From: Pyrodictiaceae archaeon
GTDB taxonomy: Archaea > Thermoproteota > Thermoprotei_A > Sulfolobales > WANQ01
Direction of reading: 5' to 3'
DNA: 64,000 nt
Assembly: GCA_015521735.1 (NCBI GenBank)
Contig: WANQ01000023.1
Location: 63,169-127,168, forward strand
The notes under the pieces are model-generated. The model was not told the DNA's origin. It did not search any database and saw only the letters and a program-made list of their open reading frames with translations. Both the position numbers and the translations under genes were made by a program. This document shows positions 13,109-33,984 of this stretch, piece after piece (positions within the stretch are counted from its first letter, which is position 1; each line of letters begins with the position of its first letter).

Positions 13109-14020
13109 TTATATCATTATCTTTTCCTCACTTTTCTCAAGACATGGTAAAAGCTTATTCCAATTATCTCTATAGTCTATGACCTTGCCAGCTACACTTA
13201 TACCTACGTGTTGCTTACCGCTAGTCTTCTTAACTATTATTTGCCCTCTAATAGCCTTTAGTAAGTCTACTAGCATGTCCTTTACTTTCTCGGGTTCACT
13301 ACTACACATGTATGTAAAGTGATTCAGTGTTTCTATTAATAGGCTACGGCAGTTATGGTCTATTCTACCATAGCTTGTACAAGCTATAATACAGGTATTT
13401 ACTAGGTAGTCTAATAGGTCTACAGTTATCTTAGTGTTTCTATAGGCTTCTAATATTATTCGTGCATAAGCGTAGGGAATACCGGTCTCAGCTTCAACTG
13501 GAATCATCCTGGATAATCTTCTATGTAATTCTAGGCTTAAACTAGGTGAACACATAGTTAAAGCTGATACCATTGCTATGAATTCTCCGGGATCCCTTAA
13601 ATAATGGTCGTACAGTATTCCTGCTAATGAGTCATAGAAGTAAGTGTTTTTTGCACGCTTTAACAAATCTTCTAGATCAATGCAATTCAGTGGTCCTGGC
13701 TCTGTAAGCTTCCTTTCAACTTCTATAGCCCAGGTGTAGGGGTCTAAGTATACTCTAGGTAGTAGCCTAAACTTTGAGAGCACTATCGGTACAAATACAA
13801 TTAAAGCAATAGTTATTCCTATTATAGCAGAGTATAGGTGTAGGCCTATTACTGCTAAACTTATTGCCGCAACATCTAGTCCTGCAATTAATGGAGTTAT
13901 AATATCTAATATCATTGCAGGGTATAGTAGGCTAAACCTACTTCTATTGTAGTATAAGTATATTGTTGAAGCAATAGCTAGGCTTACTCCTAGAACTCCT
14001 AGTACTGCTTCTTCACCCAA
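13109..14020 (-). CDS. hypothetical membrane protein (about 3 N-terminal TM helices plus a cytoplasmic domain)
   Basis: Hydrophobic segments occur within aa 5-95 and the remainder is soluble. No motif recognised. Confidence 0.5.
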   Translation of the reverse strand: MGEEAVLGVLGVSLAIASTIYLYYNRSRFSLLYPAMILDIITPLIAGLDVAAISLAVIGLHLYSAIIGITIALIVFVPIVLSKFRLLPRVYLDPYTWAIEVERKLTEPGPLNCIDLEDLLKRAKNTYFYDSLAGILYDHYLRDPGEFIAMVSALTMCSPSLSLELHRRLSRMIPVEAETGIPYAYARIILEAYRNTKITVDLLDYLVNTCIIACTSYGRIDHNCRSLLIETLNHFTYMCSSEPEKVKDMLVDLLKAIRGQIIVKKTSGKQHVGISVAGKVIDYRDNWNKLLPCLEKSEEKIMI

Positions 14021-19005: not shown

Positions 19006-19932
19006 ATGGTTTGGCGAACTATTTTCCCAGTATTCATGGTGGTTATGATACTAGCATTATTACCTGTAACAGTATTTGCTCAAGACGAAGGTATACGTAT
19101 AACATCGTATACACTATACTACTATGAGGGCCCAAAAGTTGAAACACCATATCTTCTAGCAGGTAAAGCGTATAAAGCACAGCTTACAATAGAAATGGGC
19201 CCAAAGACTCCACCAAACGTACCAGTTATTGTTGAAACCGATCTAGCAAGCTATCGTGGTGGTGAAATATTTATTGTAAAGGAGGCCAATGTAGAATACA
19301 ATACTAGTGAGAATAAGCTATTATTCATAGCTAAGCCTGGCGGTAAAATATCATTAGAGATAACTGGTATGATACCAAGCGATGTAACTGTTAAGGAAGT
19401 TAATGGACTAGAACTACACTATAAGGTTGTTTTAAGTGTTGTTAAAATGTACTATGCAAACAATCCTACTACTCCCATAGATGAGAAGAGGTATGACGTA
19501 ATAGACGAGGTTATGGAAGAATACTATAAGCTAGTTAACGAGAAGAAGAAGCTACTAGACATACCTGACACCGATGAAACCTGGAGGACTATGGTTAAGG
19601 GAATGATAAGTTTAGCTGATAAGTATGCTTCAAGAGGCCTAGTCTTAGAAGCCTTAGACATACTTAAAGCTATACCCGATAAACCTATAACTAAGCCACC
19701 TGAAGGAAAAGATACAATGTACTACATGATTATGGGTGTATTAGCCGTAGTAATGATTGTAGCAATAGTAATGTGGGTGAGGGCTACGGGTAAGGCAAAG
19801 TTCCTTGAAGAAAAACTAGAAGGCATAGTAGGAGATTTGGAAGCTATTAGCGTAAGAGTTGAGAAGCTAGATAAACGTGTAGCAGGAGAGTTAAGAGACA
19901 TCATAGATAGAGTTAAATCCGTGTTATCCTAG
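19006..19932 (+). CDS. type-I membrane protein: signal peptide, extracellular beta-rich domain, one TM helix, short cytoplasmic coiled coil
   Basis: The N-terminal signal is MVWRTIFPVFMVVMILALLPVTVFAQ. The TM helix is MYYMIMGVLAVVMIVAIVMWV. The C-terminus KFLEEKLEGIVGDLEAISVRVEKLDKRV is heptad-like. The gene ends 21 nt before the FtsZ/tubulin-like gene. Confidence 0.6.
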   Translation: MVWRTIFPVFMVVMILALLPVTVFAQDEGIRITSYTLYYYEGPKVETPYLLAGKAYKAQLTIEMGPKTPPNVPVIVETDLASYRGGEIFIVKEANVEYNTSENKLLFIAKPGGKISLEITGMIPSDVTVKEVNGLELHYKVVLSVVKMYYANNPTTPIDEKRYDVIDEVMEEYYKLVNEKKKLLDIPDTDETWRTMVKGMISLADKYASRGLVLEALDILKAIPDKPITKPPEGKDTMYYMIMGVLAVVMIVAIVMWVRATGKAKFLEEKLEGIVGDLEAISVRVEKLDKRVAGELRDIIDRVKSVLS

Positions 19933-19953
19933 TATAAATTCATTAACTACTAG

Positions 19954-22587
19954 GTGTCTAGCACGTTGACTACCCCTAAGGTTTTCGCAACCCTCCACCC
20001 CATTGGTCTTGGTGGAGCAGGTACTAACGTAGTAGAAACATACATTAGGGATAGGAGGGTTATTGAAAGAATAGCAAGTGTAGAGGACTTATACGTAGCA
20101 GTGTTAGCAATAGACGTAGCTGATGGAGATATACGTAAACTACAGGCTACAAGAGAAATAGTGTTAAGAGAGCTTAGGCAAAGAGGAATATCAACTAGTA
20201 GGCTTAGAGTTATAGCTGAATCAGTTAAATTCCCCTCACCAGAAGCAATGTTTGACTTCATATATACTAAGTACCCTGACTTCCTAAGACTTGACGGTGT
20301 AGCAATAGATAAGGAGAAGTATAAACCTATAGTAACAACATCTATAGACATACCTCCACTTGCTGGAGGAGTAGCTAGGAAAAGATCTTTATCTAAGAGT
20401 ATCTACGCGTTAAACTACTACCAGCTAGAGACCATTAAGAGAATGATAGAAGAATACAAGGATACAATGGTTAGGAATCCTGGAAGCAATATCTCAGTAA
20501 TAGTCTTCGGCTTAGGAGGTGGAACAGGTAGCGGCATAGTAGTGGACTTTGCAAGACATCTAAGAAAACATGTAGGTGAAGCAGTACCAATAATAGGCAT
20601 AAGTATTCTACCAGTTGAAGCGGATGACCCTAACGTTAAGGTTGCAGGATACATAGCCCTAAAAGAACTAGGATTCATACTAAGTCCAAGAAGAAATAAG
20701 TGGGTTGTGGAAAAGTTCGGTAAAGTCTACGAAAACCCATTCTACGCGTTCTTCTTCATCCCAATGAAGCCAGTATACAATAAGCTTGGAAGCCTACAGC
20801 TAACACATGAAGTAGTAGACTCTGAAATAGTAGACATGCTTCACACCATAGCATCAATAGACATAGCTGACGCCCTAGACCACCTACAATCTGGTAAGAT
20901 GGACGATGAATCGTACATAACAGTTACAAGGTTAATGAAAGTCTACTACCCAATAGACAAGTATATAGAAATATTGAAGTATAAGCTTGAAATAGTTGAA
21001 ACACTAGCAAGACTAGTTGAATCTAAGATTAAAGCAATAGAATCACTAATAAACATACTTGAAGACACTCGTACTAAGCTACTAAAACTATACGAAGAAC
21101 ACCTTAGAGCAACTGGAAGATATAGTGAAGACGCTGTAAAAGAACTAGTTAATAGCATTAAATCTACTCCACAATACTCTAGAAACGTCTTAATGAAGGC
21201 AAGAGACATAAAAGTCTCTGTAGAAGACATTGTTAAGTCACTATACGATATAATAGCTAACATGGAGGTTAAGGAAGGTACAACAGAGTATAATATAATA
21301 GAAATGGTACGTAAATTAAACGAGCTCATGGGTAGAGCTGAAGAAGATGTTGAAGCCTTTAGCGCAACAGTTGAATCACTTGTAGACGACTTGAAAGGCA
21401 TAATAATTAGTGCTCCAAGGTTCACCCCCGAACAGAAGTCATTGATTAATGCTTTCGCTGAACTAGCTAGACTACTTGCAAGATCATTCTACTTCATACA
21501 ATTATACGTTGATGTAACAGAGCTAGCTAAAACAATACATAGCATCATAGGTGAAGAATCTAGAAAACTTGTAGAAGAAGCACGATCAGAAGCTAATACA
21601 TTACTACAAGCGGTAAACGCTCTAATGGCTGGACCAGGAGAGGAGTCTAAGCTAGCTGAAAGCGTAGTAATAGCTTTATCAGGTACTATAAGGAGGATAG
21701 AGGAAGAGTTAAAGATTAAAGAAGACGAAAGAGATAGGCTGGAGTCAAGGATAAGAAAGCTTAGAGTAGAAGCTGACCAATTACGCTCAAAGCTAAGGGG
21801 CATACTACCATTCGGTAAGGGTAAGATTAAGGCTAGGCTACGTGAACTAGAAATACAGTTACGTAGACTAGAAGAAGAATTAAGTGTATTAAGGGACGAG
21901 TACGACGAGTTGAAGAAGAAATTCGATATACTAGACAGTATACGTAGACTATACTCAGTTGCTAGCGAGTACCGTAAAAGCATTGAGAAGATAGGTGAAC
22001 TTGAGAGAAAATTCAATGAAGAGTTGTCAAGGATTACTAGGTTAGAGAAAGTATTTACACGAGTAGCAGAGCTAAGCCATCAGGAACAGATTAAGATCTT
22101 GGAGAAACTGTTAACAGGTAGGGTAGAGGAGCTTAGAAGAGAAGAAGCATTAATGAGAATACTAGATAAGGAGAGATTCAATAGGTTCATGAGAACAGTT
22201 ATCGGTCAGCTCAAGAACCCAACAGTACTAGGAGTTAAACCAGGATTCCGAACTGATCGCATATGGGTTACAGTACTATCACCTAGAGGGTTATGGAGTG
22301 ATGACCTACGTAAAGAGGTTGAAGCAGCACTAGCAGGGTATATTGAGGGTGAGGTTAGTAGATGTATAGCTTTCCGTGAAGCAGCACCAATAGATCCATG
22401 GACTATAAGCTTACTAATAATGGTTGGCAAGGTTAAGCCACAAGACCTAGACATATACGATGTACTAAAACATAGCTATGAGGCAAGTAATCCTAGAGAT
22501 AGAGAATTCATGAGAAGCTTCCTAAAAGAATGGGGCTATACGCTCGAAGCACTAGAAGAAATGTATAAGTCAAGTAGTATCAGGTAA
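19954..22587 (+). CDS. tubulin/FtsZ-superfamily GTPase domain fused to a long coiled coil and a C-terminal globular domain
   Basis: Motifs found: GLGGAGTN (aa 18-25), AIDVADG (aa 52-58), GGGTGSG (aa 188-194, nt 20515-20535, the exact tubulin signature), IIGISILPVEAD, and SIDIADALD (aa 301-309, T7-like). Residues about 335-745 are E/K/R/L heptad-rich. Confidence 0.75.
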   Translation: MSSTLTTPKVFATLHPIGLGGAGTNVVETYIRDRRVIERIASVEDLYVAVLAIDVADGDIRKLQATREIVLRELRQRGISTSRLRVIAESVKFPSPEAMFDFIYTKYPDFLRLDGVAIDKEKYKPIVTTSIDIPPLAGGVARKRSLSKSIYALNYYQLETIKRMIEEYKDTMVRNPGSNISVIVFGLGGGTGSGIVVDFARHLRKHVGEAVPIIGISILPVEADDPNVKVAGYIALKELGFILSPRRNKWVVEKFGKVYENPFYAFFFIPMKPVYNKLGSLQLTHEVVDSEIVDMLHTIASIDIADALDHLQSGKMDDESYITVTRLMKVYYPIDKYIEILKYKLEIVETLARLVESKIKAIESLINILEDTRTKLLKLYEEHLRATGRYSEDAVKELVNSIKSTPQYSRNVLMKARDIKVSVEDIVKSLYDIIANMEVKEGTTEYNIIEMVRKLNELMGRAEEDVEAFSATVESLVDDLKGIIISAPRFTPEQKSLINAFAELARLLARSFYFIQLYVDVTELAKTIHSIIGEESRKLVEEARSEANTLLQAVNALMAGPGEESKLAESVVIALSGTIRRIEEELKIKEDERDRLESRIRKLRVEADQLRSKLRGILPFGKGKIKARLRELEIQLRRLEEELSVLRDEYDELKKKFDILDSIRRLYSVASEYRKSIEKIGELERKFNEELSRITRLEKVFTRVAELSHQEQIKILEKLLTGRVEELRREEALMRILDKERFNRFMRTVIGQLKNPTVLGVKPGFRTDRIWVTVLSPRGLWSDDLRKEVEAALAGYIEGEVSRCIAFREAAPIDPWTISLLIMVGKVKPQDLDIYDVLKHSYEASNPRDREFMRSFLKEWGYTLEALEEMYKSSSIR

Positions 22588-22589
22588 AC

Positions 22590-23597
22590 TTATTCTTCTT
22601 CAAGTAGAAGACTTCTCCTATACTCTACGTAGGCTTTTTTAAGATGCCCTAACACCTTATCCACTAGTTCAGGGCTAAGCCTCTCAAGTAATACTAGATT
22701 AACTCTACGTACACTACCAAACCTTGAATTAGAATAGTCTATGCTCATGCTAACCAAGTTCTTAAACTTACCGTAAACCCATTCATTAAAGGCTAGCTTC
22801 AAGTCATCATACCTAAGATTCACCCTGGGTTCAGCTCTAACAACAAGCATAACTGCGTCGCCATCCCAAGTCCAAGGAGTCATAAGTGTTCCTAGCTCTA
22901 ATGCCTTAAGTAATCCTTCTACGCCATTATATAGCGGTATACTAGCACCCGTAAGCCCCGCCATAACCCATATCCTTGAATCCCTCCACCTAAGAGCTTC
23001 TTGAAGGAATAATGCTTTACCACTAACAATACTAGCCACCAGCTCACCTAAACCACTATACCTATAAACATATTCACCGTCAAGACCTAAGCCTACGAAC
23101 TCTGCTATTCTTCTAGGACTAACAGCTACTATAGCGTCAACAAGATTCTCATTACTTACACGTGTAATCCAAGAATACGTTAAAGCCTTAATCTCTATAG
23201 GTGAGCCAGGCCCAGGGGTTATCAACAACACTAATACTTTACCATCGCTAACCCTTTTACGGTATTCTCGTAGAATCCTATAGAGTATGGGTGCTTCTTC
23301 ACGTCTATTAAATTCTGCTACAACTACAAGTATCTTAGAGTAAGGTATGTGTTTCTTAAATAACTCATAGTATTCAACACTACTAGCATACCATGGATCA
23401 ACTAGTTTAACATCTACTCCAACATATTTTGAATGATCTCTTACAAACAATACAGCATAATCTTGGTCAAAACCCCACCTATTTACACGTTCGCATAGCT
23501 CTGAAGCTTCCTTAGAAACAACTATAATACTTAAATCCCTTACCCTAGGCTTAAAAGAGTCCCCTAATACTTTAATGAATTCTGTAATGCTCTCCAA
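22590..23597 (-). CDS. hypothetical protein; possibly a degenerate FtsZ/tubulin-fold paralogue lacking the glycine GTP-binding motifs
   Basis: 335 aa. The pattern of strands and helices is co-linear with FtsZ (LSIIVVSKE / AVLFVRDH / KILVVVAEFNRREEAPILYRIL / VLVLLITPGPGSP...VDAIVAVSP / IWVMAGLTG...AVMLVVRAEP...NLVLLERL), but no GGGTGxG is present. It sits tail-to-tail with 19954..22587 across a 2-nt gap. Confidence 0.5.
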   Translation of the reverse strand: MESITEFIKVLGDSFKPRVRDLSIIVVSKEASELCERVNRWGFDQDYAVLFVRDHSKYVGVDVKLVDPWYASSVEYYELFKKHIPYSKILVVVAEFNRREEAPILYRILREYRKRVSDGKVLVLLITPGPGSPIEIKALTYSWITRVSNENLVDAIVAVSPRRIAEFVGLGLDGEYVYRYSGLGELVASIVSGKALFLQEALRWRDSRIWVMAGLTGASIPLYNGVEGLLKALELGTLMTPWTWDGDAVMLVVRAEPRVNLRYDDLKLAFNEWVYGKFKNLVSMSIDYSNSRFGSVRRVNLVLLERLSPELVDKVLGHLKKAYVEYRRSLLLEEE

Positions 23598-23780
23598 CTT
23601 AACTAGCCCCTAAACACTTTAACTCATTACCGGGTTAGCTAGATCTAATACCGTGTTGTATTATAACCTTATGTTATATTTAAGGATGTCTTTATTAGGA
23701 ATAACCTAGGAACTAGTAAGTAGAAACCACTAGGAGTACGTGGCTCTCATCCAGTAATATAATACTACTAAGCTACTAAG

Positions 23781-26348
23781 GTGTTATGCGTGGGGCTTAT
23801 AGAGAGTACTAAAAGGTATGGTCCAAGAATACTAGCAGCTATATCATCGTTCTTATTCATAGTTTGGGGTTCTAGCCAGGTACCCTTGCTCTCAGTATTC
23901 CTTGAGCCACGTGGGCTATTATTATCAGTAACCTTGGGTGTAATTGCTGGAGTACTATCATACATGAACCGTAACCGTGTCTCAGCATTCATAGCTACGC
24001 TACTTGTAGTAGGTGGTCTCCTCTACCATATAATGTACTTTTACGTAGTTAAAGCATCTATACCCGTAGAAATAGCATCATCTTATCCAGCAATATACGA
24101 GATGCTCTCAGATCCTTTATCAAGAGTACTTTATGCTTCAGTAGCTATCTCAGCCTTTATTGTTGCGCTTATTATTGCTGCTACAATAAAGCATCCGCTA
24201 GAGCTTATATCATATTATATTAGCTTGACTGCTCTACTCCTATTCATAACACCTTATGCGTATCTCTCAATACCACTCTTATTCGCTGCACTTAGTGCTG
24301 CAAGAGTTGTTGGTGCTAAAAGCATTAAGGGCTTAGGACTATTCTTCTTAATATACTTCTCACTACTACTCCCAATACACGTATCATACATTATGACCAA
24401 CTATGGGTTAAGAGAATCCAATGGAGATCCAACAATGGCTGTTCTCTATGCCATAGGCTACTACTCCATTCAAGGTAATAGGAGTATTCCAGTATTTGAT
24501 AAGATAAATAAGAGTGAGGTCGTACACGGAGAACTACTATTATCGGCAAGGCTATCAGAACTTGTAGCTAAATTCCGTACGGGGAGCCTTAGGCCTAAGC
24601 TCGAGGACTTTACTAACCTACCATACGATGAAGTTAGAGATAGACTTGCAGCATCACTTGTTGTTGCAGCTAATAGGGTAATAGCAGACTATAGTATTCC
24701 TCTAACCATAGCTATGTCAACTATATGGTTTGGCTTAGGTTTAGGTCTAGCATTCTACTCTTACGCTAGTAGGCAAATACAGAAGCTAATACTAGGCATA
24801 CTTCGTAGAGCTGAAAACATAATAGCACTAATTGCCTCAACCATAGCTTTACCTCTAATTGTAGTAGTAACCTTGTGGATAGGTTTAGCTTTAGGGGTGT
24901 ACTTCTTTACAGCTCTATCACCATTAGGCTATGAATCACCTATAATTATAGGTAATACGCTTATCTTATTACATGGACTCCTAGTAATACTAGGAATAGT
25001 GTATCCACCATACGTGTTTAACACCTTCCCAACACTCCTAAAACTAGGAGAAGAATTTAGGAAGAGATATCTCTCTACACTTGAAGCATTACTTGATAAG
25101 GTTAGTATCCTAAGAGGTTCGCTAGTTAAAATTCTAGATCTAGCCAAGACAGAACAAGCAGCATTTAAGAAGATAGACCTAGAACTAGTAAGCCTTGAAG
25201 AAGATCTTGTATCAAAGTTTAACTGGGTTAGAATAGCTAAAAGCCTAGACATACTTAGGAGTAAACTTGAAGGATACATTGGGGCTGTTTCAGATAAGTA
25301 TGGTATGCTAGAACTGCAACTAGTAGAAGAGCTTAGAAGAGTATTTAATATAAGGTATACTACGCTCAACGAAGCAGTAAATATTGCTAGAGAGCTAGGT
25401 GCAGTCGTAGAAATACCTGAAAACCTTGCTAAAGTAAAGCCGGATAAAATGATGATAATGGAGTTAATAGAAGCATTAAGAGAACTAAATAGGGCAGCTA
25501 ATAAAGTAGTAGAAGTGCTAACTAATCAATACGAAGAAATGGGTAAAAGCCTAGCATTATTAGATCCTGAAGGAGAAGAAATACTTAGAAGTGTTAAAGC
25601 AGATGTTGAAAGCATTAAGTCTAACCTAGACTATGACCCTCATGTAGCATTAGATTTAGCTCTAAAAACAATAGTAAGATTCCGTGATGCTTACTACGAA
25701 AGATTAATGAGCTTGTGGAAAACTCTTGTAGAACAGTTATCTGGAACCATAGATGAAGTGGAGAAATTACTTAGTGAGAGTATCTTCATAGAAGACATTA
25801 TTAGAGATCAATTATTATCTTTAGTACGTGAAGCTAAGAACCATTTAGTAGTAGAAATAGGTGATATAAGTACATTATCTAAGAAGATTAGTGGTGTTAG
25901 GACAAGTATTTTAGAGCTAGTGGAGAAAACCATCGACTTAATAGAATCGGAGTCATTAAAGGCTTCAAAACTAGTAGGAGTAGAAAAAGCGATCATACTA
26001 GACTTATCCGGTATACCAGCAAACTATGCAGTAGAGATAAGACATACATTAAAGCTTATTACATCTAGGACGGGTGTACGTGCATTTATGGAGCTTACAG
26101 AACTCATGAAGAGAAGTATAGAGTACCTAAACCAAATAAGTATTGCTCGTGAAAGATGTGCTAACTTCTGGATAGCTCGTAGAGTAATAGATAAAGCTAT
26201 AATAGAGGGTAGATGTATTAGTATAGATGAGTTACCATTCACTAAAGATCATTCTAGATGGATGATGAAACTATATGCTAGAATACATTATACGGATACA
26301 GTAATGGAGTTAAAGGATGGAGTTGAACATATTTGTCCTAGGCGCTAA
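23781..26348 (+). CDS. large polytopic membrane protein (about 10-12 TM helices, aa 1-415) with a 440-aa cytoplasmic helical domain
   Basis: Many hydrophobic segments run up to aa 415, and the rest is helical E/K/L-rich. It is divergent from 22590..23597. TAATATAATA lies at 23755-23764. The start could be GTG 23781 or the in-frame GTG 23790. Confidence 0.65.
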   Translation: MLCVGLIESTKRYGPRILAAISSFLFIVWGSSQVPLLSVFLEPRGLLLSVTLGVIAGVLSYMNRNRVSAFIATLLVVGGLLYHIMYFYVVKASIPVEIASSYPAIYEMLSDPLSRVLYASVAISAFIVALIIAATIKHPLELISYYISLTALLLFITPYAYLSIPLLFAALSAARVVGAKSIKGLGLFFLIYFSLLLPIHVSYIMTNYGLRESNGDPTMAVLYAIGYYSIQGNRSIPVFDKINKSEVVHGELLLSARLSELVAKFRTGSLRPKLEDFTNLPYDEVRDRLAASLVVAANRVIADYSIPLTIAMSTIWFGLGLGLAFYSYASRQIQKLILGILRRAENIIALIASTIALPLIVVVTLWIGLALGVYFFTALSPLGYESPIIIGNTLILLHGLLVILGIVYPPYVFNTFPTLLKLGEEFRKRYLSTLEALLDKVSILRGSLVKILDLAKTEQAAFKKIDLELVSLEEDLVSKFNWVRIAKSLDILRSKLEGYIGAVSDKYGMLELQLVEELRRVFNIRYTTLNEAVNIARELGAVVEIPENLAKVKPDKMMIMELIEALRELNRAANKVVEVLTNQYEEMGKSLALLDPEGEEILRSVKADVESIKSNLDYDPHVALDLALKTIVRFRDAYYERLMSLWKTLVEQLSGTIDEVEKLLSESIFIEDIIRDQLLSLVREAKNHLVVEIGDISTLSKKISGVRTSILELVEKTIDLIESESLKASKLVGVEKAIILDLSGIPANYAVEIRHTLKLITSRTGVRAFMELTELMKRSIEYLNQISIARERCANFWIARRVIDKAIIEGRCISIDELPFTKDHSRWMMKLYARIHYTDTVMELKDGVEHICPRR

Positions 26349-26377: not shown

Positions 26378-27268
26378 TTGATTAAATTCAAAGCTCCTAA
26401 ATCCCGTGAAAAGTTTGAGGAACCATTATGTATTTACGATAATAGACGAGTTACATTAACTATAATAGATAGTAGGCTGCAGTTGGTTGAGAAGAAGTTT
26501 TTATCAAAACACGTTGTACTAGAAATAGAGCTTAATCATTTAGAGGAAGTATCAATTAGTAATGGATCTCTAATATTCACTTTAGATGATGGTAGTACTC
26601 TGAACTTGCTCAATTGCCAAAACGTTGAAAACATAGTAGAATACGCTAAGAGAATTGTAGAGGAGAAAGCGATAAATAAGCGTATAGTAGAATATGAGAA
26701 AAAGCTTTACAGTAAAGCTTTAGAAGCATTCTATGACATTAAGAGGCTTATAGTAGAGGTATATCCAGCAATAGTGGATGTAGCGAGAATGCTTAGGGAT
26801 ATACCTAATTATGAAGGAGCTATTGGTAAAGCTAATCACCTGGCATCGCTTGTAGATGAAGCAGCCGATATAGTTAGGGCGCTGAGAGCGTATGATTCAC
26901 TTAAAGCTCACAGATTACTAGTTGAATTGTCAAAAAAGCTGTACGAGGATACTATCATTAGAATAAGAGAGGTGAATTTAGGGAAGGATGTTGAAGAATA
27001 CTTGTTGAAGGCGTTGGATTTAGGAGTACTACTAAACGTGTTGATAGCTAAGATATATGTGGGCAAAAACTATAAGGATGAACTAGAGAAAGCTAAAATT
27101 CTTACTAAAGAGGTTGCAGGTTTTGATCCAGGCTTACCTGAGTCTCCTAGGCCAGAACACTTATACGATAAGCTCAGTAATATCATGGATAGAGTTGAGG
27201 AAAAGTTCAAAGAGCTAGCTAAGTCCAAGGCTCATGAGGAAGCTGTAAGAACGGTCAGGGAAGGTTAA
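26378..27268 (+). CDS. hypothetical protein: small N-terminal beta domain (PH-like?) plus a helical domain
   Basis: 296-aa ORF with a TTG start, 29 nt after the preceding gene. aa 20-95 alternate as beta-strands capped by a helix and the remainder is helical. Confidence 0.55.
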   Translation: MIKFKAPKSREKFEEPLCIYDNRRVTLTIIDSRLQLVEKKFLSKHVVLEIELNHLEEVSISNGSLIFTLDDGSTLNLLNCQNVENIVEYAKRIVEEKAINKRIVEYEKKLYSKALEAFYDIKRLIVEVYPAIVDVARMLRDIPNYEGAIGKANHLASLVDEAADIVRALRAYDSLKAHRLLVELSKKLYEDTIIRIREVNLGKDVEEYLLKALDLGVLLNVLIAKIYVGKNYKDELEKAKILTKEVAGFDPGLPESPRPEHLYDKLSNIMDRVEEKFKELAKSKAHEEAVRTVREG

Positions 27269-28331: not shown

Positions 28332-29456
28332 TTAACTCAAAGTGGTATTGTATTCAAGAGACAATGGCCTATAATTCAGGTCTTCAACATAGTATGTTGT
28401 TGGAGCCAGTGTTTTACGGATACTATAGTATACTATTTTGTCTATGGGATCATAGTCTACTACTCTAAACAACCAGTAGTAAGTTTTTGAACTAAGTCTT
28501 TCATACCTAAGTATGTTAAAGAACCTAGTATATGTTACTAGTTTTACTGACGGAATATAGTTCTCTCTATACACTTGGCCCAATACTAATGGCTTAATAC
28601 TGTATACCTCTATTCTCTTAATAGCTATACTACATCTCCAAGCAACTACACCAGGCCAAGTATTAACATCGTTAATGTAGAATACATGCTTAGACATAGA
28701 TGTGATCATGATAGGGTCTAGCCAAGGATAATCATAAGAGTCGTTTAACTCTACTATACCGCCAACAATATAGTTCTTAGACCTAGCTATCCATAAAGCA
28801 TAAGTCCTATTAACCTTGAACTTAAAGTCTACTACTGCTTCACTAAAAATCCATCTATAACCACTTAGACTCCAATGTCCCTCAAAATCATATGATAATT
28901 GCTGTCTACTAGTAAACCTGCCTAACACACTAATCCAGTAGCCAGCAATCCTAAAGTAAGCTCCATAATCATCGTGGGTTACTCCTCTTACTTCATATAA
29001 TCCTATGCCTCCTCGGGCATAGTACCTACTTGCACCTCCAAGGAATCTTACATAGGCTATGTAGAGTACTAGGTTTTCGTCAAAGAGCTTGCTCCAAGGA
29101 TTAAGTGTATTATTCATTAACGGTAGTGTTAGTAGCATGTGATGAGTATTTCTTAGTATGAGCCATCCATTACTTACATAAACATACTGTGATGGAACCT
29201 TGATACCTACACTATACTGTGTTCTAGCTATAAAGTACTTTAAGCTCTCATTATCTATGTCGTCGAAGTCTAAGATATAAACGGGCATGGGTCTAACCAG
29301 TGTTATGTAAGATAAGTTCTGTACAGGCGAACTGCTAACTGGTTCCAACTGTATACCTGGGCCTAGATAGTGCTGTCTGCTAGGCCAAGCAATACTAATT
29401 GGAGCTAAAGCGGACATTATGAGTAGTACTACGAATATTAGTTTAATTCTATACAC
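28332..29456 (-). CDS. hypothetical secreted/anchored protein (Y/W-rich, beta-rich)
   Basis: The N-terminal hydrophobic signal or anchor is LIFVVLLIMSALAPISIA. No motif recognised. Confidence 0.55.
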   Translation of the reverse strand: MYRIKLIFVVLLIMSALAPISIAWPSRQHYLGPGIQLEPVSSSPVQNLSYITLVRPMPVYILDFDDIDNESLKYFIARTQYSVGIKVPSQYVYVSNGWLILRNTHHMLLTLPLMNNTLNPWSKLFDENLVLYIAYVRFLGGASRYYARGGIGLYEVRGVTHDDYGAYFRIAGYWISVLGRFTSRQQLSYDFEGHWSLSGYRWIFSEAVVDFKFKVNRTYALWIARSKNYIVGGIVELNDSYDYPWLDPIMITSMSKHVFYINDVNTWPGVVAWRCSIAIKRIEVYSIKPLVLGQVYRENYIPSVKLVTYTRFFNILRYERLSSKTYYWLFRVVDYDPIDKIVYYSIRKTLAPTTYYVEDLNYRPLSLEYNTTLS

Positions 29457-31084: not shown

Positions 31085-32128
31085 ATGTCTCTCTTAGAAA
31101 TACCTGTAGATTACCTTGAGGCTCGTATAATAGAATTACTAAATGAGGTGAAGCCCCCGGTAAATCGCCGTGAAGTATTGTCAAGACTTGCAGCTGAGGG
31201 ACTTAGCATACCTGAGTCAAAGCTCTACAAGATATTTAGTTATATAAGAAATAGGTGGAAACTAGTAGCACAAGTCAACATGTATACCTTAGGTTTAAGA
31301 GATCTAGTAGTAGTGTTAAAGAAGGTACCAGAAAACATCTATACGCCATACCTTGTTTTTCAAAGCCAGCTTAGAGGTAGAGGACTTGTACTATCATATA
31401 GGCTCCCATTTAAGGTTCCAGCATCAGAAATACTATCATATTATCCAAGAGAACTTGTAGAAGACTACGTAGTAATAGTCTATAAGCGTAGACCTGGTCC
31501 TGCTTTAATGAAATACTACTTTGATGGATGGATAAGAGTTAACTTGTTAACCGAGATAAGTAAAGTTTTTGATAGACTTAGAGGGCTAGATGATGTAGTA
31601 GTTGATAAGTCTCTGAAAAGATTTAGCTTAACTGATCTACTAATAGTAAGTGAGCTGGAAAGAGATGCTTTAAGTAGTGTAAGAGATATTGCGCGTAAGA
31701 TAAATGCTAAGTATGATAGAGTACTACGTAGAGTAGAGTCAATTAGAAAGCAGGGTATAGTTGAAGGTATAGGTGTAGGCTTATTTGATCTAGAACTACT
31801 GAGAAGAGGAGCTAGACTAATAGTAATAGGTGGTTTAAGAGGAATATACCCCTATCATAGGTTAACTATGGAGTTAGCACGTATACCTGGGCTAGGAACA
31901 GTAGGTGTTGATACTCTAACAGATAAAATCCTACTACTCATACCAAGTAGACATGTAGAATACAATAACTTAGCTAGTAGTTTGAAAAGACACTTAGTTA
32001 ACGTTAAAATATATGAGGTTGAACCAGAGCACTCAGTATTTTACCGCATGCCAAGAACTCTAAGAACATCAATACAAGAGTACATTGGCACATGGTTTGA
32101 GTTTACAACAGAGTCTAGAATAACCTAA
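31085..32128 (+). CDS. putative transcriptional regulator with winged-helix/AsnC-type HTH segments
   Basis: LTDLLIVSELERDALSSVRDIARKINAKYDRVLRRVESIRKQGIVEG resembles the Lrp/AsnC N-terminal HTH. An additional HTH-like segment lies near the N-terminus. Confidence 0.5.
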   Translation: MSLLEIPVDYLEARIIELLNEVKPPVNRREVLSRLAAEGLSIPESKLYKIFSYIRNRWKLVAQVNMYTLGLRDLVVVLKKVPENIYTPYLVFQSQLRGRGLVLSYRLPFKVPASEILSYYPRELVEDYVVIVYKRRPGPALMKYYFDGWIRVNLLTEISKVFDRLRGLDDVVVDKSLKRFSLTDLLIVSELERDALSSVRDIARKINAKYDRVLRRVESIRKQGIVEGIGVGLFDLELLRRGARLIVIGGLRGIYPYHRLTMELARIPGLGTVGVDTLTDKILLLIPSRHVEYNNLASSLKRHLVNVKIYEVEPEHSVFYRMPRTLRTSIQEYIGTWFEFTTESRIT

Positions 32129-32625: not shown

Positions 32626-33984
32626 TTATTTCTTTAAAAAGCTGTCTAGGCTTCCAAGCTTTCTCCCACGCTTACCTTTAACTACCTTTTCTATGAAATG
32701 ATCTCTAACGGGTTCATATACGTGTTTATAGAATTTCTGTGGGTCGCGTAGAATGTTTTCGGGGAATTGTTTTAGGTATTCTATTGCCGCTTTCCATGCT
32801 TTCTCGTATGGTATTACTGAGTTTATTTTAGACGCTATGTTTTTGTCATAGTCTTCTGGTAGTTGCTCTACATCACCCATCATGAACCATCCACGAGGGG
32901 ATACTGGTACTTCTTCTCCAAGAACCCTTACTAGCCTCCAAGGCCTACCCTCTCCTTGCCCGCTAGGCTTCTTTGCCTTATATGTTCTTCCATAATATTT
33001 AGCCCATGCATAGAATATTGCTCTATTTAATCCAAAGCTCTTAGCCTTCTCCAAGTCACCTGTAAGTAGATAGTATCTTGCTGCCTGCAGTAACCCCATA
33101 ACCTGGAATCTACCTATAACACCCCTACCCTCACTACCAGCTACGTTCTTGTACGATACTCTTGTCTGTCTTGCCCTAAACTCTGCTATACGTAGTTCTC
33201 CCACTCTTTCCAATGCTTTTAGGGCTAGTTCATCTGCTTCTCCAATAACGTGTTCTCTCCATTTAGGGTTATGCCTATACTTTTCTACTAGTGTCCAGTC
33301 TACGTGGAAGCTATCTATTTCTTCAGGCTTGAATACTACTGCTACTCTATCTAATCTCCTATGAATACTTAAGGGTACTGTAAACACTCTCTTAGCGTCA
33401 ATGAGGTTTTCAACTTTAAGCTTACCGTTAACCTCCTTAGATAAGGCTATTATCCTGGCCTTAACGTTCTCTAAAACATACTCTACTACAGCATAGGCTA
33501 CATCTAATGGATGATGTATTGATAATAGTTCTGGAGAGAAAGCTTTCTCATGAATTCTAACATGTACTCCTTCTCCACTCCACAGCAAATATACGCTCTT
33601 AACCACATGGTTTCTTTCCAGAAAGTCTACTATTACTCTAGCAGCTTCAAGGGCTTTCTCCCAGTAGTCTATTGTAGAGTCTATGTCCCAGAAAGGTGTT
33701 GTAAAAGCTATATTGTCTACTAGCTCGACACTAGCCTTACCCTTAATCTCGTAGTAAACATTTATTGTAGCATAGAATGTTCTAGTCCACGGATAAGTGG
33801 ACAGTATTCTACGTAGACCTTCAGCACTCTTAATTGTTAATGGTTCACCATTACGCCAGTATCTTGTAAACAATCTATCCTTACCCTTGTAGCCCTCAAT
33901 ACTAACCCATCTATTCTTAGCAAAATCAACTACTTCCTTTACTACAACATCCTTAAGATAATGTAGTCTAGCATTGAGAGTCAA
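32626..33984 (-). CDS. archaeo-eukaryotic primase (AEP) superfamily protein, PriS-like catalytic core with a C-terminal helical extension
   Basis: The three AEP catalytic motifs appear in order: FWDIDS (DxD), LLWSGEGVHVRIH (SGxGxH) and AKRVFTVPLSIHRR (R..P.S.H). About 190 aa follow the core. Confidence 0.65.
   Translation of the reverse strand: MTLNARLHYLKDVVVKEVVDFAKNRWVSIEGYKGKDRLFTRYWRNGEPLTIKSAEGLRRILSTYPWTRTFYATINVYYEIKGKASVELVDNIAFTTPFWDIDSTIDYWEKALEAARVIVDFLERNHVVKSVYLLWSGEGVHVRIHEKAFSPELLSIHHPLDVAYAVVEYVLENVKARIIALSKEVNGKLKVENLIDAKRVFTVPLSIHRRLDRVAVVFKPEEIDSFHVDWTLVEKYRHNPKWREHVIGEADELALKALERVGELRIAEFRARQTRVSYKNVAGSEGRGVIGRFQVMGLLQAARYYLLTGDLEKAKSFGLNRAIFYAWAKYYGRTYKAKKPSGQGEGRPWRLVRVLGEEVPVSPRGWFMMGDVEQLPEDYDKNIASKINSVIPYEKAWKAAIEYLKQFPENILRDPQKFYKHVYEPVRDHFIEKVVKGKRGRKLGSLDSFLKK

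Follow-up and report, generated by a model that had tools for sequence, protein, structure and literature searches.

A Tubulin_2-type protein with a predicted core-splitting helical stalk and a tubulin-fold neighbour in a conserved gene cluster

Gene Z and its GTPase domain

The 64-kb stretch of DNA analysed here (‘the window’; Pyrodictiaceae archaeon, contig WANQ01000023.1) carries a gene, which we call Z, whose product has a tubulin/FtsZ-type GTPase domain at its N-terminus, a segmented helical ‘stalk’ and a conserved globular domain at its C-terminus. It lies in a conserved cluster, A-Z-C-D(-E), in which the neighbouring gene C is predicted to encode a second protein with a tubulin fold. 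The features of Z are as follows, given in amino acids (aa) of the protein and, where stated, nucleotide positions of the window:

19954..22587, plus strand: gene Z, protein very probably of FtsZl1/Tubulin_2 type; uninterrupted open reading frame (ORF) of 877 aa from a GTG codon
19954..20955, plus strand: tubulin/FtsZ-type GTPase domain (aa 1–334), with strands S1–S6, an H7-like helix and a short stretch after the T7-like motif
20005..20028, plus strand: T1 glycine loop GLGGAGTN (aa 18–25), read from the sequence
aa 51–58, plus strand: LAIDVADG, read from the sequence
aa 136–141, plus strand: LAGGVA, read from the sequence
20515..20535, plus strand: T4 tubulin signature GGGTGSG (aa 188–194), its glycines invariant in 184 sequences
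aa 211–224, plus strand: VPIIGISILPVEAD, read from the sequence
20854..20880, plus strand: T7-like motif SIDIADALD (aa 301–309), following a long helix (aa 282–301)
20956..22215, plus strand: segmented helical, heptad-bearing stalk (aa ~335–754), defined by heptad score and as an insertion relative to a short sister family
22216..22584, plus strand: conserved C-terminal globular domain (aa 755–877), adjacent to the GTPase domain in a short sister family of ~520 aa

Translation may alternatively begin at a TTG codon at 19966, giving a protein of 873 aa, since a Shine-Dalgarno-like GGTG motif lies at 19953–19956 and a database protein of 100% identity has that length. Every motif quoted for Z in a preliminary description of this DNA is found in its place within the 877-aa ORF. 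When 184 non-identical family members are aligned, the glycines of T1 and T4 (G20, G23, G188–G190, G192, G194) are invariant, as are D54, A56, G138, G139, R142, R144, G186, D224, D225, K229, D303 and D306; N25 is almost so (asparagine in 172 sequences, aspartate in 2, a gap in 10), as is N261. Judged on these motifs the match to tubulin/FtsZ is far beyond chance and, with its pocket for GTP conserved in full, Z is almost certain to bind this nucleotide.

Profile searches place the domain in the same superfamily. The Pfam model Tubulin_2 (PF13809) matches aa 17–241 with 46.6 bits (E 3.6e-12), well above its gathering score of 27, with only positions 3–233 of the 356-position model taking part in the alignment; the general Tubulin/FtsZ model PF00091 matches aa 147–237 with 32.6 bits, slightly below its cut-off of 33. 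Run against all PDB sequences, a profile of the Z N-domain finds mostly FtsZ, CetZ and tubulins, the best match being CetZ1 (E 2.7e-5), with only the T1 and T4–S5 regions aligning.

In an AlphaFold2 model of aa 1–350, built on 18 aligned sequences (mean pLDDT 72.2, pTM 0.76), we see six strands that alternate with helices and, after them, a long H7-like helix (aa 282–301) leading into a DxxD pair; residues 126–142 and 304–332 are modelled with low confidence, and the first helix of the stalk begins at aa 334. Foldseek searches of the PDB with this model return tubulin-superfamily structures with a probability of 1.00 and the best TM-scores, at E ~1e-4: CetZ2 (PDB: 4b45) at 0.43, TubZ (PDB: 2xka) at 0.39–0.40 and FtsZ at 0.32–0.36. 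The structural check therefore recovers a tubulin-type fold, and Pfam, profile and Foldseek searches agree with the preliminary description in making the N-terminus of Z a tubulin/FtsZ-superfamily GTPase domain. We also considered whether GGGTGSG might sit in an unrelated Rossmann protein, and rejected this; SDR proteins are matched with a TM-score of 0.25 and a root-mean-square deviation of 13 Å, as against 0.32–0.43 and a probability of 1.00 for the tubulin family, so that we read the SDR match as generic Rossmann similarity, and sequence profiles favour tubulin-family proteins.

The preliminary description had also assigned an acidic pair of Z to a T7-like loop, the element that in FtsZ follows helix H7, and the sequence is consistent with this: D303 and D306 are co-linear with the FtsZ motif, form an invariant DxxD directly after the H7-like helix, and belong to a segment that reads DFDLADLL in the family consensus, where FtsZ has NxDFAD. 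We take the two aspartates to be a candidate T7-like pair, with a putative role in catalysis.

A helical insertion, and the family to which Z belongs

Beyond the GTPase domain, heptads score 0.63 in the stalk, where shuffled sequences reach 0.44 ± 0.02. The preliminary description took residues 335–745 for one continuous coiled coil; the helical heptad signal stands, the continuity does not, as the signal falls into five segments (334–383, 410–438, 446–486, 569–618 and 620–710) between conserved Gly/Pro breaks at 388, 406, 442, 482–492, 560–562 and 616–623. The globular C-terminus that was noted beyond it is a conserved domain of ~125 aa.

A short family of Tubulin_2 proteins (~470–590 aa), found as two adjacent tubulin-type genes (for example WP_011600030/WP_011600032 on plasmid pRHL2 of Rhodococcus jostii RHA1), shares both halves of the globular core of Z and shows how these halves are related. 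With hhalign, the full Z alignment matches its member P0274 over aa 12–301 of Z and 17–334 of P0274 (probability 100%, E 7e-51), and a profile of Z aa 736–877 matches aa 397–506 of the same protein (probability 97.3%, E 2.3e-11); blastp independently matches the C-terminal domain at E 9e-8. The segment joining the two domains is ~60 aa long in the short family and ~455 aa in Z. Since both globular parts are adjacent in the short family, the stalk is, on these alignments, an insertion of ~415 aa that splits one bipartite globular core; blastp, hhalign and mafft comparisons together make the region an internal insertion and not a terminal fusion.

An insertion that starts and ends at one place is most simply read as an antiparallel hairpin, and we think it rather probable that the stalk folds back on itself as a coiled-coil ‘arm’ with ~200 residues in each strand. 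In this the protein would work somewhat like SMC, Rad50 and MukB, whose N- and C-terminal segments are likewise parted by several hundred heptad-bearing residues; the resemblance is one of design and not of membership, Z being a tubulin-type GTPase and not an ABC-type P-loop ATPase, and its presumed hairpin arm being shorter. NCBIfam SMC matches to Z reach 18 bits where the cut-off is 567, and were dismissed as coiled-coil noise.

By eye, the C-terminal domain has a strand-helix-strand-strand order like S8–S10 of FtsZ, and we asked whether it is the ‘missing’ FtsZ_C/Tubulin_C half of the fold. We rejected this candidate as unsupported by sequence: a profile of aa 736–877 finds no match in Pfam or among PDB sequences, and its hhalign comparison with the C family gives a probability of 0.2%.

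The preliminary description knew of no tubulin family with a coiled-coil fusion and put FtsZL1 proteins at ~350–500 aa. Neither statement survives the literature, as FtsZ-like 1 (FtsZl1), defined from Huta_2051 by Makarova & Koonin (Biol Direct 2010; PMC2875224), was published with exactly such an architecture. Huta_2051 has 1051 aa and a coiled coil at 445–781, and most of the 121 members likewise combine an FtsZ-like N-domain with an extended coiled coil and a globular C-terminus; among the members are PAB1257, MA2711 and, from Sulfolobus solfataricus, SSO1376, the first FtsZ/tubulin protein seen in Crenarchaeota (PMC2875224). The main claim to novelty that had been made for Z therefore falls. 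Pfam Tubulin_2 is the model of this family (PMC9871819). Z shares with FtsZl1 all three parts of its architecture, including GGGTG(S/T)G in the GTPase domain; it passes the Tubulin_2 cut-off, and its nearest relatives among 1.84 billion proteins are Tubulin_2 proteins, so that we assign it to the FtsZl1/Tubulin_2 family with high confidence. Later papers still treat FtsZl1 as uncharacterised, a 2011 review calls its function unknown, and we found no experimental study of it in the literature searched.

Relatives of Z number at least 377 in a search of 5.8 billion proteins; those listed are 873–908 aa long and match over their full length, and nearly all of 120 listed homologues carry PF13809 in precomputed annotation. 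When GTDB species were scanned, each through a single genome, 199 stretches were confirmed to contain relatives, and the best 80 of these come from metagenome-assembled genomes (MAGs) of Desulfurococcales (75–84% identity), many Bathyarchaeia, Nitrososphaeria and bacteria of the Dehalococcoidia/Chloroflexota; with the nearest loci in Desulfurococcales, the order to which the window too probably belongs, the crenarchaeal host suggested by the preliminary description is borne out. In a distance tree we see three deep clades that track taxonomy, with ~31–35% identity between them; the mean column identity of the N-domain is 64%.

An exhaustive search of 1.84 billion representative proteins with a hidden Markov model (HMM) of the N-domain returns only 298 proteins at E ≤ 1e-3, in three tiers: the Z subfamily itself (~16 full-length representatives), the short family, and proteins of 850–1170 aa. 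Tubulin_2 was present in all ten of these that were scanned, and canonical FtsZ and tubulin were not reached at this threshold; from this we conclude that Z forms a distinct branch inside the Tubulin_2/FtsZl1 radiation. Among the features that set the branch apart from FtsZl1 as described are the partial match to the Tubulin_2 model, the invariant DxxD after the H7-like helix, where T6–H7 was reported as unidentifiable in FtsZl1, and the C-terminal domain, whose profile does not detect FtsZl1 proteins of ~1130 aa. One protein of 1069 aa (P0277), which falls in the tier of the short family, is low in complexity and rich in Asn/Lys; it has the N-domain of Z, a stalk, the C-terminal domain of Z at aa 750–871 and ~200 further residues, and is an intermediate between the Z subfamily and the longer FtsZl1 proteins.

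A conserved cluster and a second tubulin-fold protein

Four genes accompany Z in the window:

19006..19932, plus strand: gene A, type-I membrane protein of 308 aa (from ORF and hydropathy)
22590..23597, minus strand: gene C, predicted tubulin-superfamily pseudo-GTPase of 335 aa, with a predicted two-domain fold and AEFNRREEAP in place of GGGTGSG
23781..26348, plus strand: gene D, 855 aa, with ~9 transmembrane helices (aa 23–406) and a ~445-aa cytoplasmic helical domain (from hydropathy)
26378..27268, plus strand: gene E, soluble protein of 296 aa, beta-rich in its N-terminal part and helical in the remainder

To see how constant this company is, we surveyed 84 loci (83 fetched, plus the window) by iterative searches around Z. 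A lies immediately upstream in 80 of them, C adjoins Z in 79, D follows C in 76, and an E-family gene stands after D or before A in 35. In 53 loci the order is A+ Z+ C- D+, and the 11 bacterial loci have A Z D (E) C; most of the loci with fewer cluster genes are short or end at a contig edge. The taxa concerned are Bathyarchaeia, Desulfurococcales, Nitrososphaeria and Dehalococcoidia.

The product of C in the window has no Pfam match. Its AlphaFold2 model, built on 41 sequences, is of good quality (pLDDT 83, pTM 0.85) and matches CetZ (E 6e-13, TM-score 0.62), alpha-, beta- and gamma-tubulin (TM-scores 0.54–0.66) and FtsZ over its whole length; Foldseek reports more than 1000 matches below 1e-3, and all 50 listed belong to the tubulin superfamily. 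Sequence comparisons across the C family point the same way, with 12 of 32 aligned members matching PF00091 (best E 7.7e-11) and three matching PF13809, and with hhalign pairing the C family and the Z N-domain in the T4–H4–S5 region (probability 81%, E 1.3e-5). According to the model, then, C has the complete two-domain fold of tubulin and CetZ. What varies is the nucleotide site, as the residues at the T4 position illustrate:

Dehalococcoidia: GGGTGSG
Bathyarchaeia: WDG(I/V)GSA
the window and its Desulfurococcales relatives: EFNRREE

T1 degenerates alongside T4 and, with both motifs degraded in the archaeal proteins, C is on sequence grounds a pseudo-GTPase in archaea. The locus thereby recalls the heterodimeric tubulins in which one site is non-catalytic, as it encodes two tubulin-superfamily proteins that differ in the integrity of their nucleotide sites. 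The best structural matches of C over its full length are likewise CetZ and tubulins; unlike CetZ, alpha/beta-tubulin and BtubA/B, however, archaeal C lacks the T1 and T4 motifs, no Tubulin_C or FtsZ_C domain is recognisable in Z, and the identity of C to CetZ and tubulin is only 10–16%.

The bacterial type of C (~445–480 aa), in addition to keeping GGGTGSG, has an N-terminal zinc-ribbon-like motif, CPNxHxNP...C..CG, that is missing from archaeal C. Five genes of this type are:

L014, 7712–9067
L035, 14105–15460
L073, 15099–16430
L022, 12702–14054
L061, 875–2176

The orientation of C is also distinctive. In Desulfurococcales and Bathyarchaeia it is inverted, tail-to-tail with Z and head-to-head with D; in the window a gap of 2 bp (22588–22589) separates it from Z and an AT-rich spacer of 183 bp (23598–23780) from D. 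In Dehalococcoidia and one Nitrososphaeria locus C is co-directional. That the inversion is kept across deep clades suggests that C is separately regulated.

Of the remaining partners, A is predicted to have a signal/transmembrane helix (aa 6–24), an ectodomain of ~215 aa, a second transmembrane helix (aa 240–258) and a cytoplasmic helical tail of 50 aa. Gene E of the window is probably a divergent member of the E family, whose HMM matches it weakly when run on this one sequence (12.5 bits, E 4e-6); the Desulfurococcales locus L004 contains an orthologue of it (E 7e-38). Searches of Pfam, NCBIfam, PADLOC and PDB profiles gave no informative match for A, D or E, the profile of D returning only coiled-coil noise from the PDB.

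The setting is chromosomal, and around the cluster lie housekeeping genes (aminotransferase, nitroreductase, radical-SAM proteins, a K+ channel, HisRS) that differ between clades. Genes for a cytidylyltransferase, a GHMP kinase, an ECF S-component, HIT and SPFH proteins that are conserved at a greater distance from it in Bathyarchaeia were judged to reflect lineage synteny and left outside the module. One metagenomic locus of Bathyarchaeia type, L003, has a gene for CdvA (2175–2762; PF18822) at ~7 kb on the upstream side of the module; this is probably coincidence, since CdvA is not among the gene families conserved across the surveyed loci.

The operon described for euryarchaeal FtsZl1 offers a useful comparison: it runs A2 (a small membrane protein), FtsZl1, a membrane P-loop GTPase and A1 (a large protein), in the same order of slots as at Z. 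Slot 3, however, is taken at Z by the tubulin-fold protein C in place of the membrane-associated P-loop GTPase, and the vWA, OmpA and protein-kinase neighbours of FtsZl1 are not conserved; among the conserved neighbours in the 84 loci we found none of the reported vWA, divergent P-loop GTPase, OmpA-like or Ser/Thr kinase partners.

The short family, by comparison, lacks the helical insertion and the DxxD pair, keeps GGTGSG in both paralogues, and sits not in an A/C/D/E module but in plasmid clusters with amidase, AmiC/ANTAR and Co/Ni-transporter genes. On plasmids of Rhodococcus, Brucella and Agrobacterium it forms a triad (tubulin-like protein, small protein of ~100 aa, tubulin-like protein), with tubulin-like members of ~510–570 aa; three examples are:

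L084, 8860–12440 (Rhodococcus jostii RHA1 pRHL2)
L085, 5839–9474
L086, 5854–9513

Both paralogues of the triad carry a Cys-rich C-terminal motif, GECIWGCACW. Its neighbours, read from three records (two Rhodococcus, one Agrobacterium), include an aliphatic amidase, AmiC-like, ANTAR and MarR regulators, a GTP-binding protein, Ni/Co transporters (CbtA/B, Cbi ECF), and CbbQ and vWA genes; the triad seems to be a hitherto unexplored pair of tubulin-type proteins with a link to the metabolism of amides or metals. Paired tubulin-type genes thus recur in the clade; their biological role is not uniform.

Elsewhere in the window, Pfam gives no match at E ≤ 1e-4 for four sizeable ORFs (303–452 aa) close to the module, the first of them beginning with a hydrophobic, signal-like segment:

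28332–29456, minus strand
31085–32128, plus strand
32626–33984, minus strand
13109–14020, minus strand

Neither a tRNA gene (ARAGORN) nor an Rfam family at its gathering threshold was found in the whole 64 kb.

A possible membrane-anchored assembly

Our account of Z as a whole, from its family and split core to its partners, we favour by a modest balance of probability only. The part that concerns how Z works is more tentative: our best guess is a membrane-anchored, GTP-driven assembly of Z and C, and we hold this model with rather less than even confidence. Z would act together with the four co-conserved gene products; C would bind its GTPase core as a non-catalytic partner or ‘cap’; and Z, alone or with C, would form a GTP-dependent oligomer or filament in which head-to-tail contacts between Z subunits set D303/D306 into the GTP site of the next subunit and so trigger hydrolysis. 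The arm of Z and the helical cytoplasmic segments of A and D (and E) would then ‘tie’ this structure to the membrane and cell surface, where it might organise or remodel the envelope. That the GTP site and DxxD pair of Z are invariant in all three deep clades, whatever the state of the GTP site of C, speaks for an action of the pair on Z-type sites, by way of Z–Z contacts, and not on C. A role in remodelling membranes would agree with the published guess for FtsZl1, ‘membrane remodelling’.

Saying this, several points weigh against such an assembly. The hairpin, the contact between Z and C, polymerisation and the membrane role are all steps that we infer, going beyond the family, fold, motifs, insertion and gene cluster of Z and the fold of C that we observe. 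The TM-scores of the Z N-domain are modest (0.32–0.43), and Rossmann-type SDR proteins match it at a similar E (~1e-4), albeit with the far poorer superposition given above (TM-score 0.25, ~13 Å). The T7-like segment is modelled at a pLDDT below 50, and in the search of PDB sequences the Z profile gave no alignment of it to the T7 of FtsZ. Since no likeness of the C-terminal domain to FtsZ_C, Tubulin_C or the C family was detected, a full longitudinal interface of tubulin type can be called putative only. Indels, too, leave the pairing of the presumed arm strands no more than putative: in the 184 sequences segment lengths correlate by clade only, region 660–760 is constant in length, and an 8-aa indel in 333–384 has no counterpart there. 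Makarova & Koonin, moreover, thought that FtsZl1 proteins might form no filaments. Finally, with its sister family in amidase and cobalt-transport clusters, a membrane role is not clade-wide, and rests for Z on its own neighbours only.

Other readings of the same data fare less well, though the first two are serious rivals. Z alone might be a self-polymerising FtsZ-like filament with a C-terminal coiled-coil tether, C being irrelevant or merely regulatory; the GTP-contact loops and the acidic pair after the H7-like helix are after all invariant, and every characterised tubulin-superfamily protein polymerises, as the authors’ response in the FtsZl1 paper points out (PMC2875224). We nevertheless think this unlikely, given that the helical region is an internal insertion and no tail, that a tubulin-fold partner is co-conserved in 79 of the 84 loci, and that no FtsZ_C-like domain was detected that would complete the longitudinal interface. 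The opposite possibility, a GTP-gated ‘clamp’ that does not polymerise, would make sense of a core split by a long helical insertion, of membrane partners with helical cytoplasmic domains, and of the report that FtsZl1 lacks recognisable filament-forming elements (PMC2875224); it too strikes us as improbable, for a non-polymerising tubulin-fold GTPase would be without precedent, and the hairpin on which a clamp depends is itself our inference, its arm lengths covarying clade-wise only.

The patchy spread of the five-gene cassette over archaea and Chloroflexota, its compactness, its membrane protein, and the association of FtsZl1 relatives elsewhere with vWA and MoxR-type genes might also suggest a mobile anti-virus or conflict system, in which D, a polytopic membrane protein, would be the effector and Z and C the NTP-dependent sensor. 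This we consider very improbable, and we rejected it as the principal explanation because PADLOC gave only coiled-coil noise (fragments of LmuB, ZorA and JetC) and no relatives of Z were found on IMG/VR viral contigs; in addition, the flanks are housekeeping genes that change from clade to clade, the clades are deep and taxon-coherent with the highly conserved N-domain described above, and the cassette holds no nuclease, protease or toxin domain. A division ring is unlikely as well. Z does resemble FtsZ in its T1 and T4 loops, Rossmann-like GTPase fold, H7-like helix and NxDxxD-like acidic pair; it scores, however, only 17.6 bits against the 295.2-bit cut-off of the FtsZ equivalog TIGR00065 and lacks both an FtsZ_C domain and the C-terminal peptide that binds SepF/FtsA, and in the literature the division of Desulfurococcales is put down, as probable, to ESCRT-III-like (Cdv) proteins.

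The architecture of Z is thus not itself a new discovery; what appears to be new is the constant company of a degenerate tubulin-fold protein and two membrane proteins. Our literature searches found no paper on the Z subfamily or its paired pseudo-tubulin and, as far as could be found, the fixed A-Z-C-D(-E) module, the pseudo-tubulin partner and the core-splitting stalk have not been described before. Among branches of the tubulin superfamily FtsZl1 is one of the most divergent, and its capacity to form filaments is putative. The Z branch offers a tractable test case: it is compact and highly conserved, has a full GTP site, a candidate T7 pair and an obvious set of partners, and its Desulfurococcales version is probably thermostable. 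If Z and C do co-assemble, they would represent a further independent origin of the pairing of an active with an inactive tubulin; Z would be a tubulin-fold NTPase whose split head bears a coiled-coil arm, the first of its kind; and crenarchaeotes that divide by ESCRT/Cdv would have a tubulin-based system of their own.

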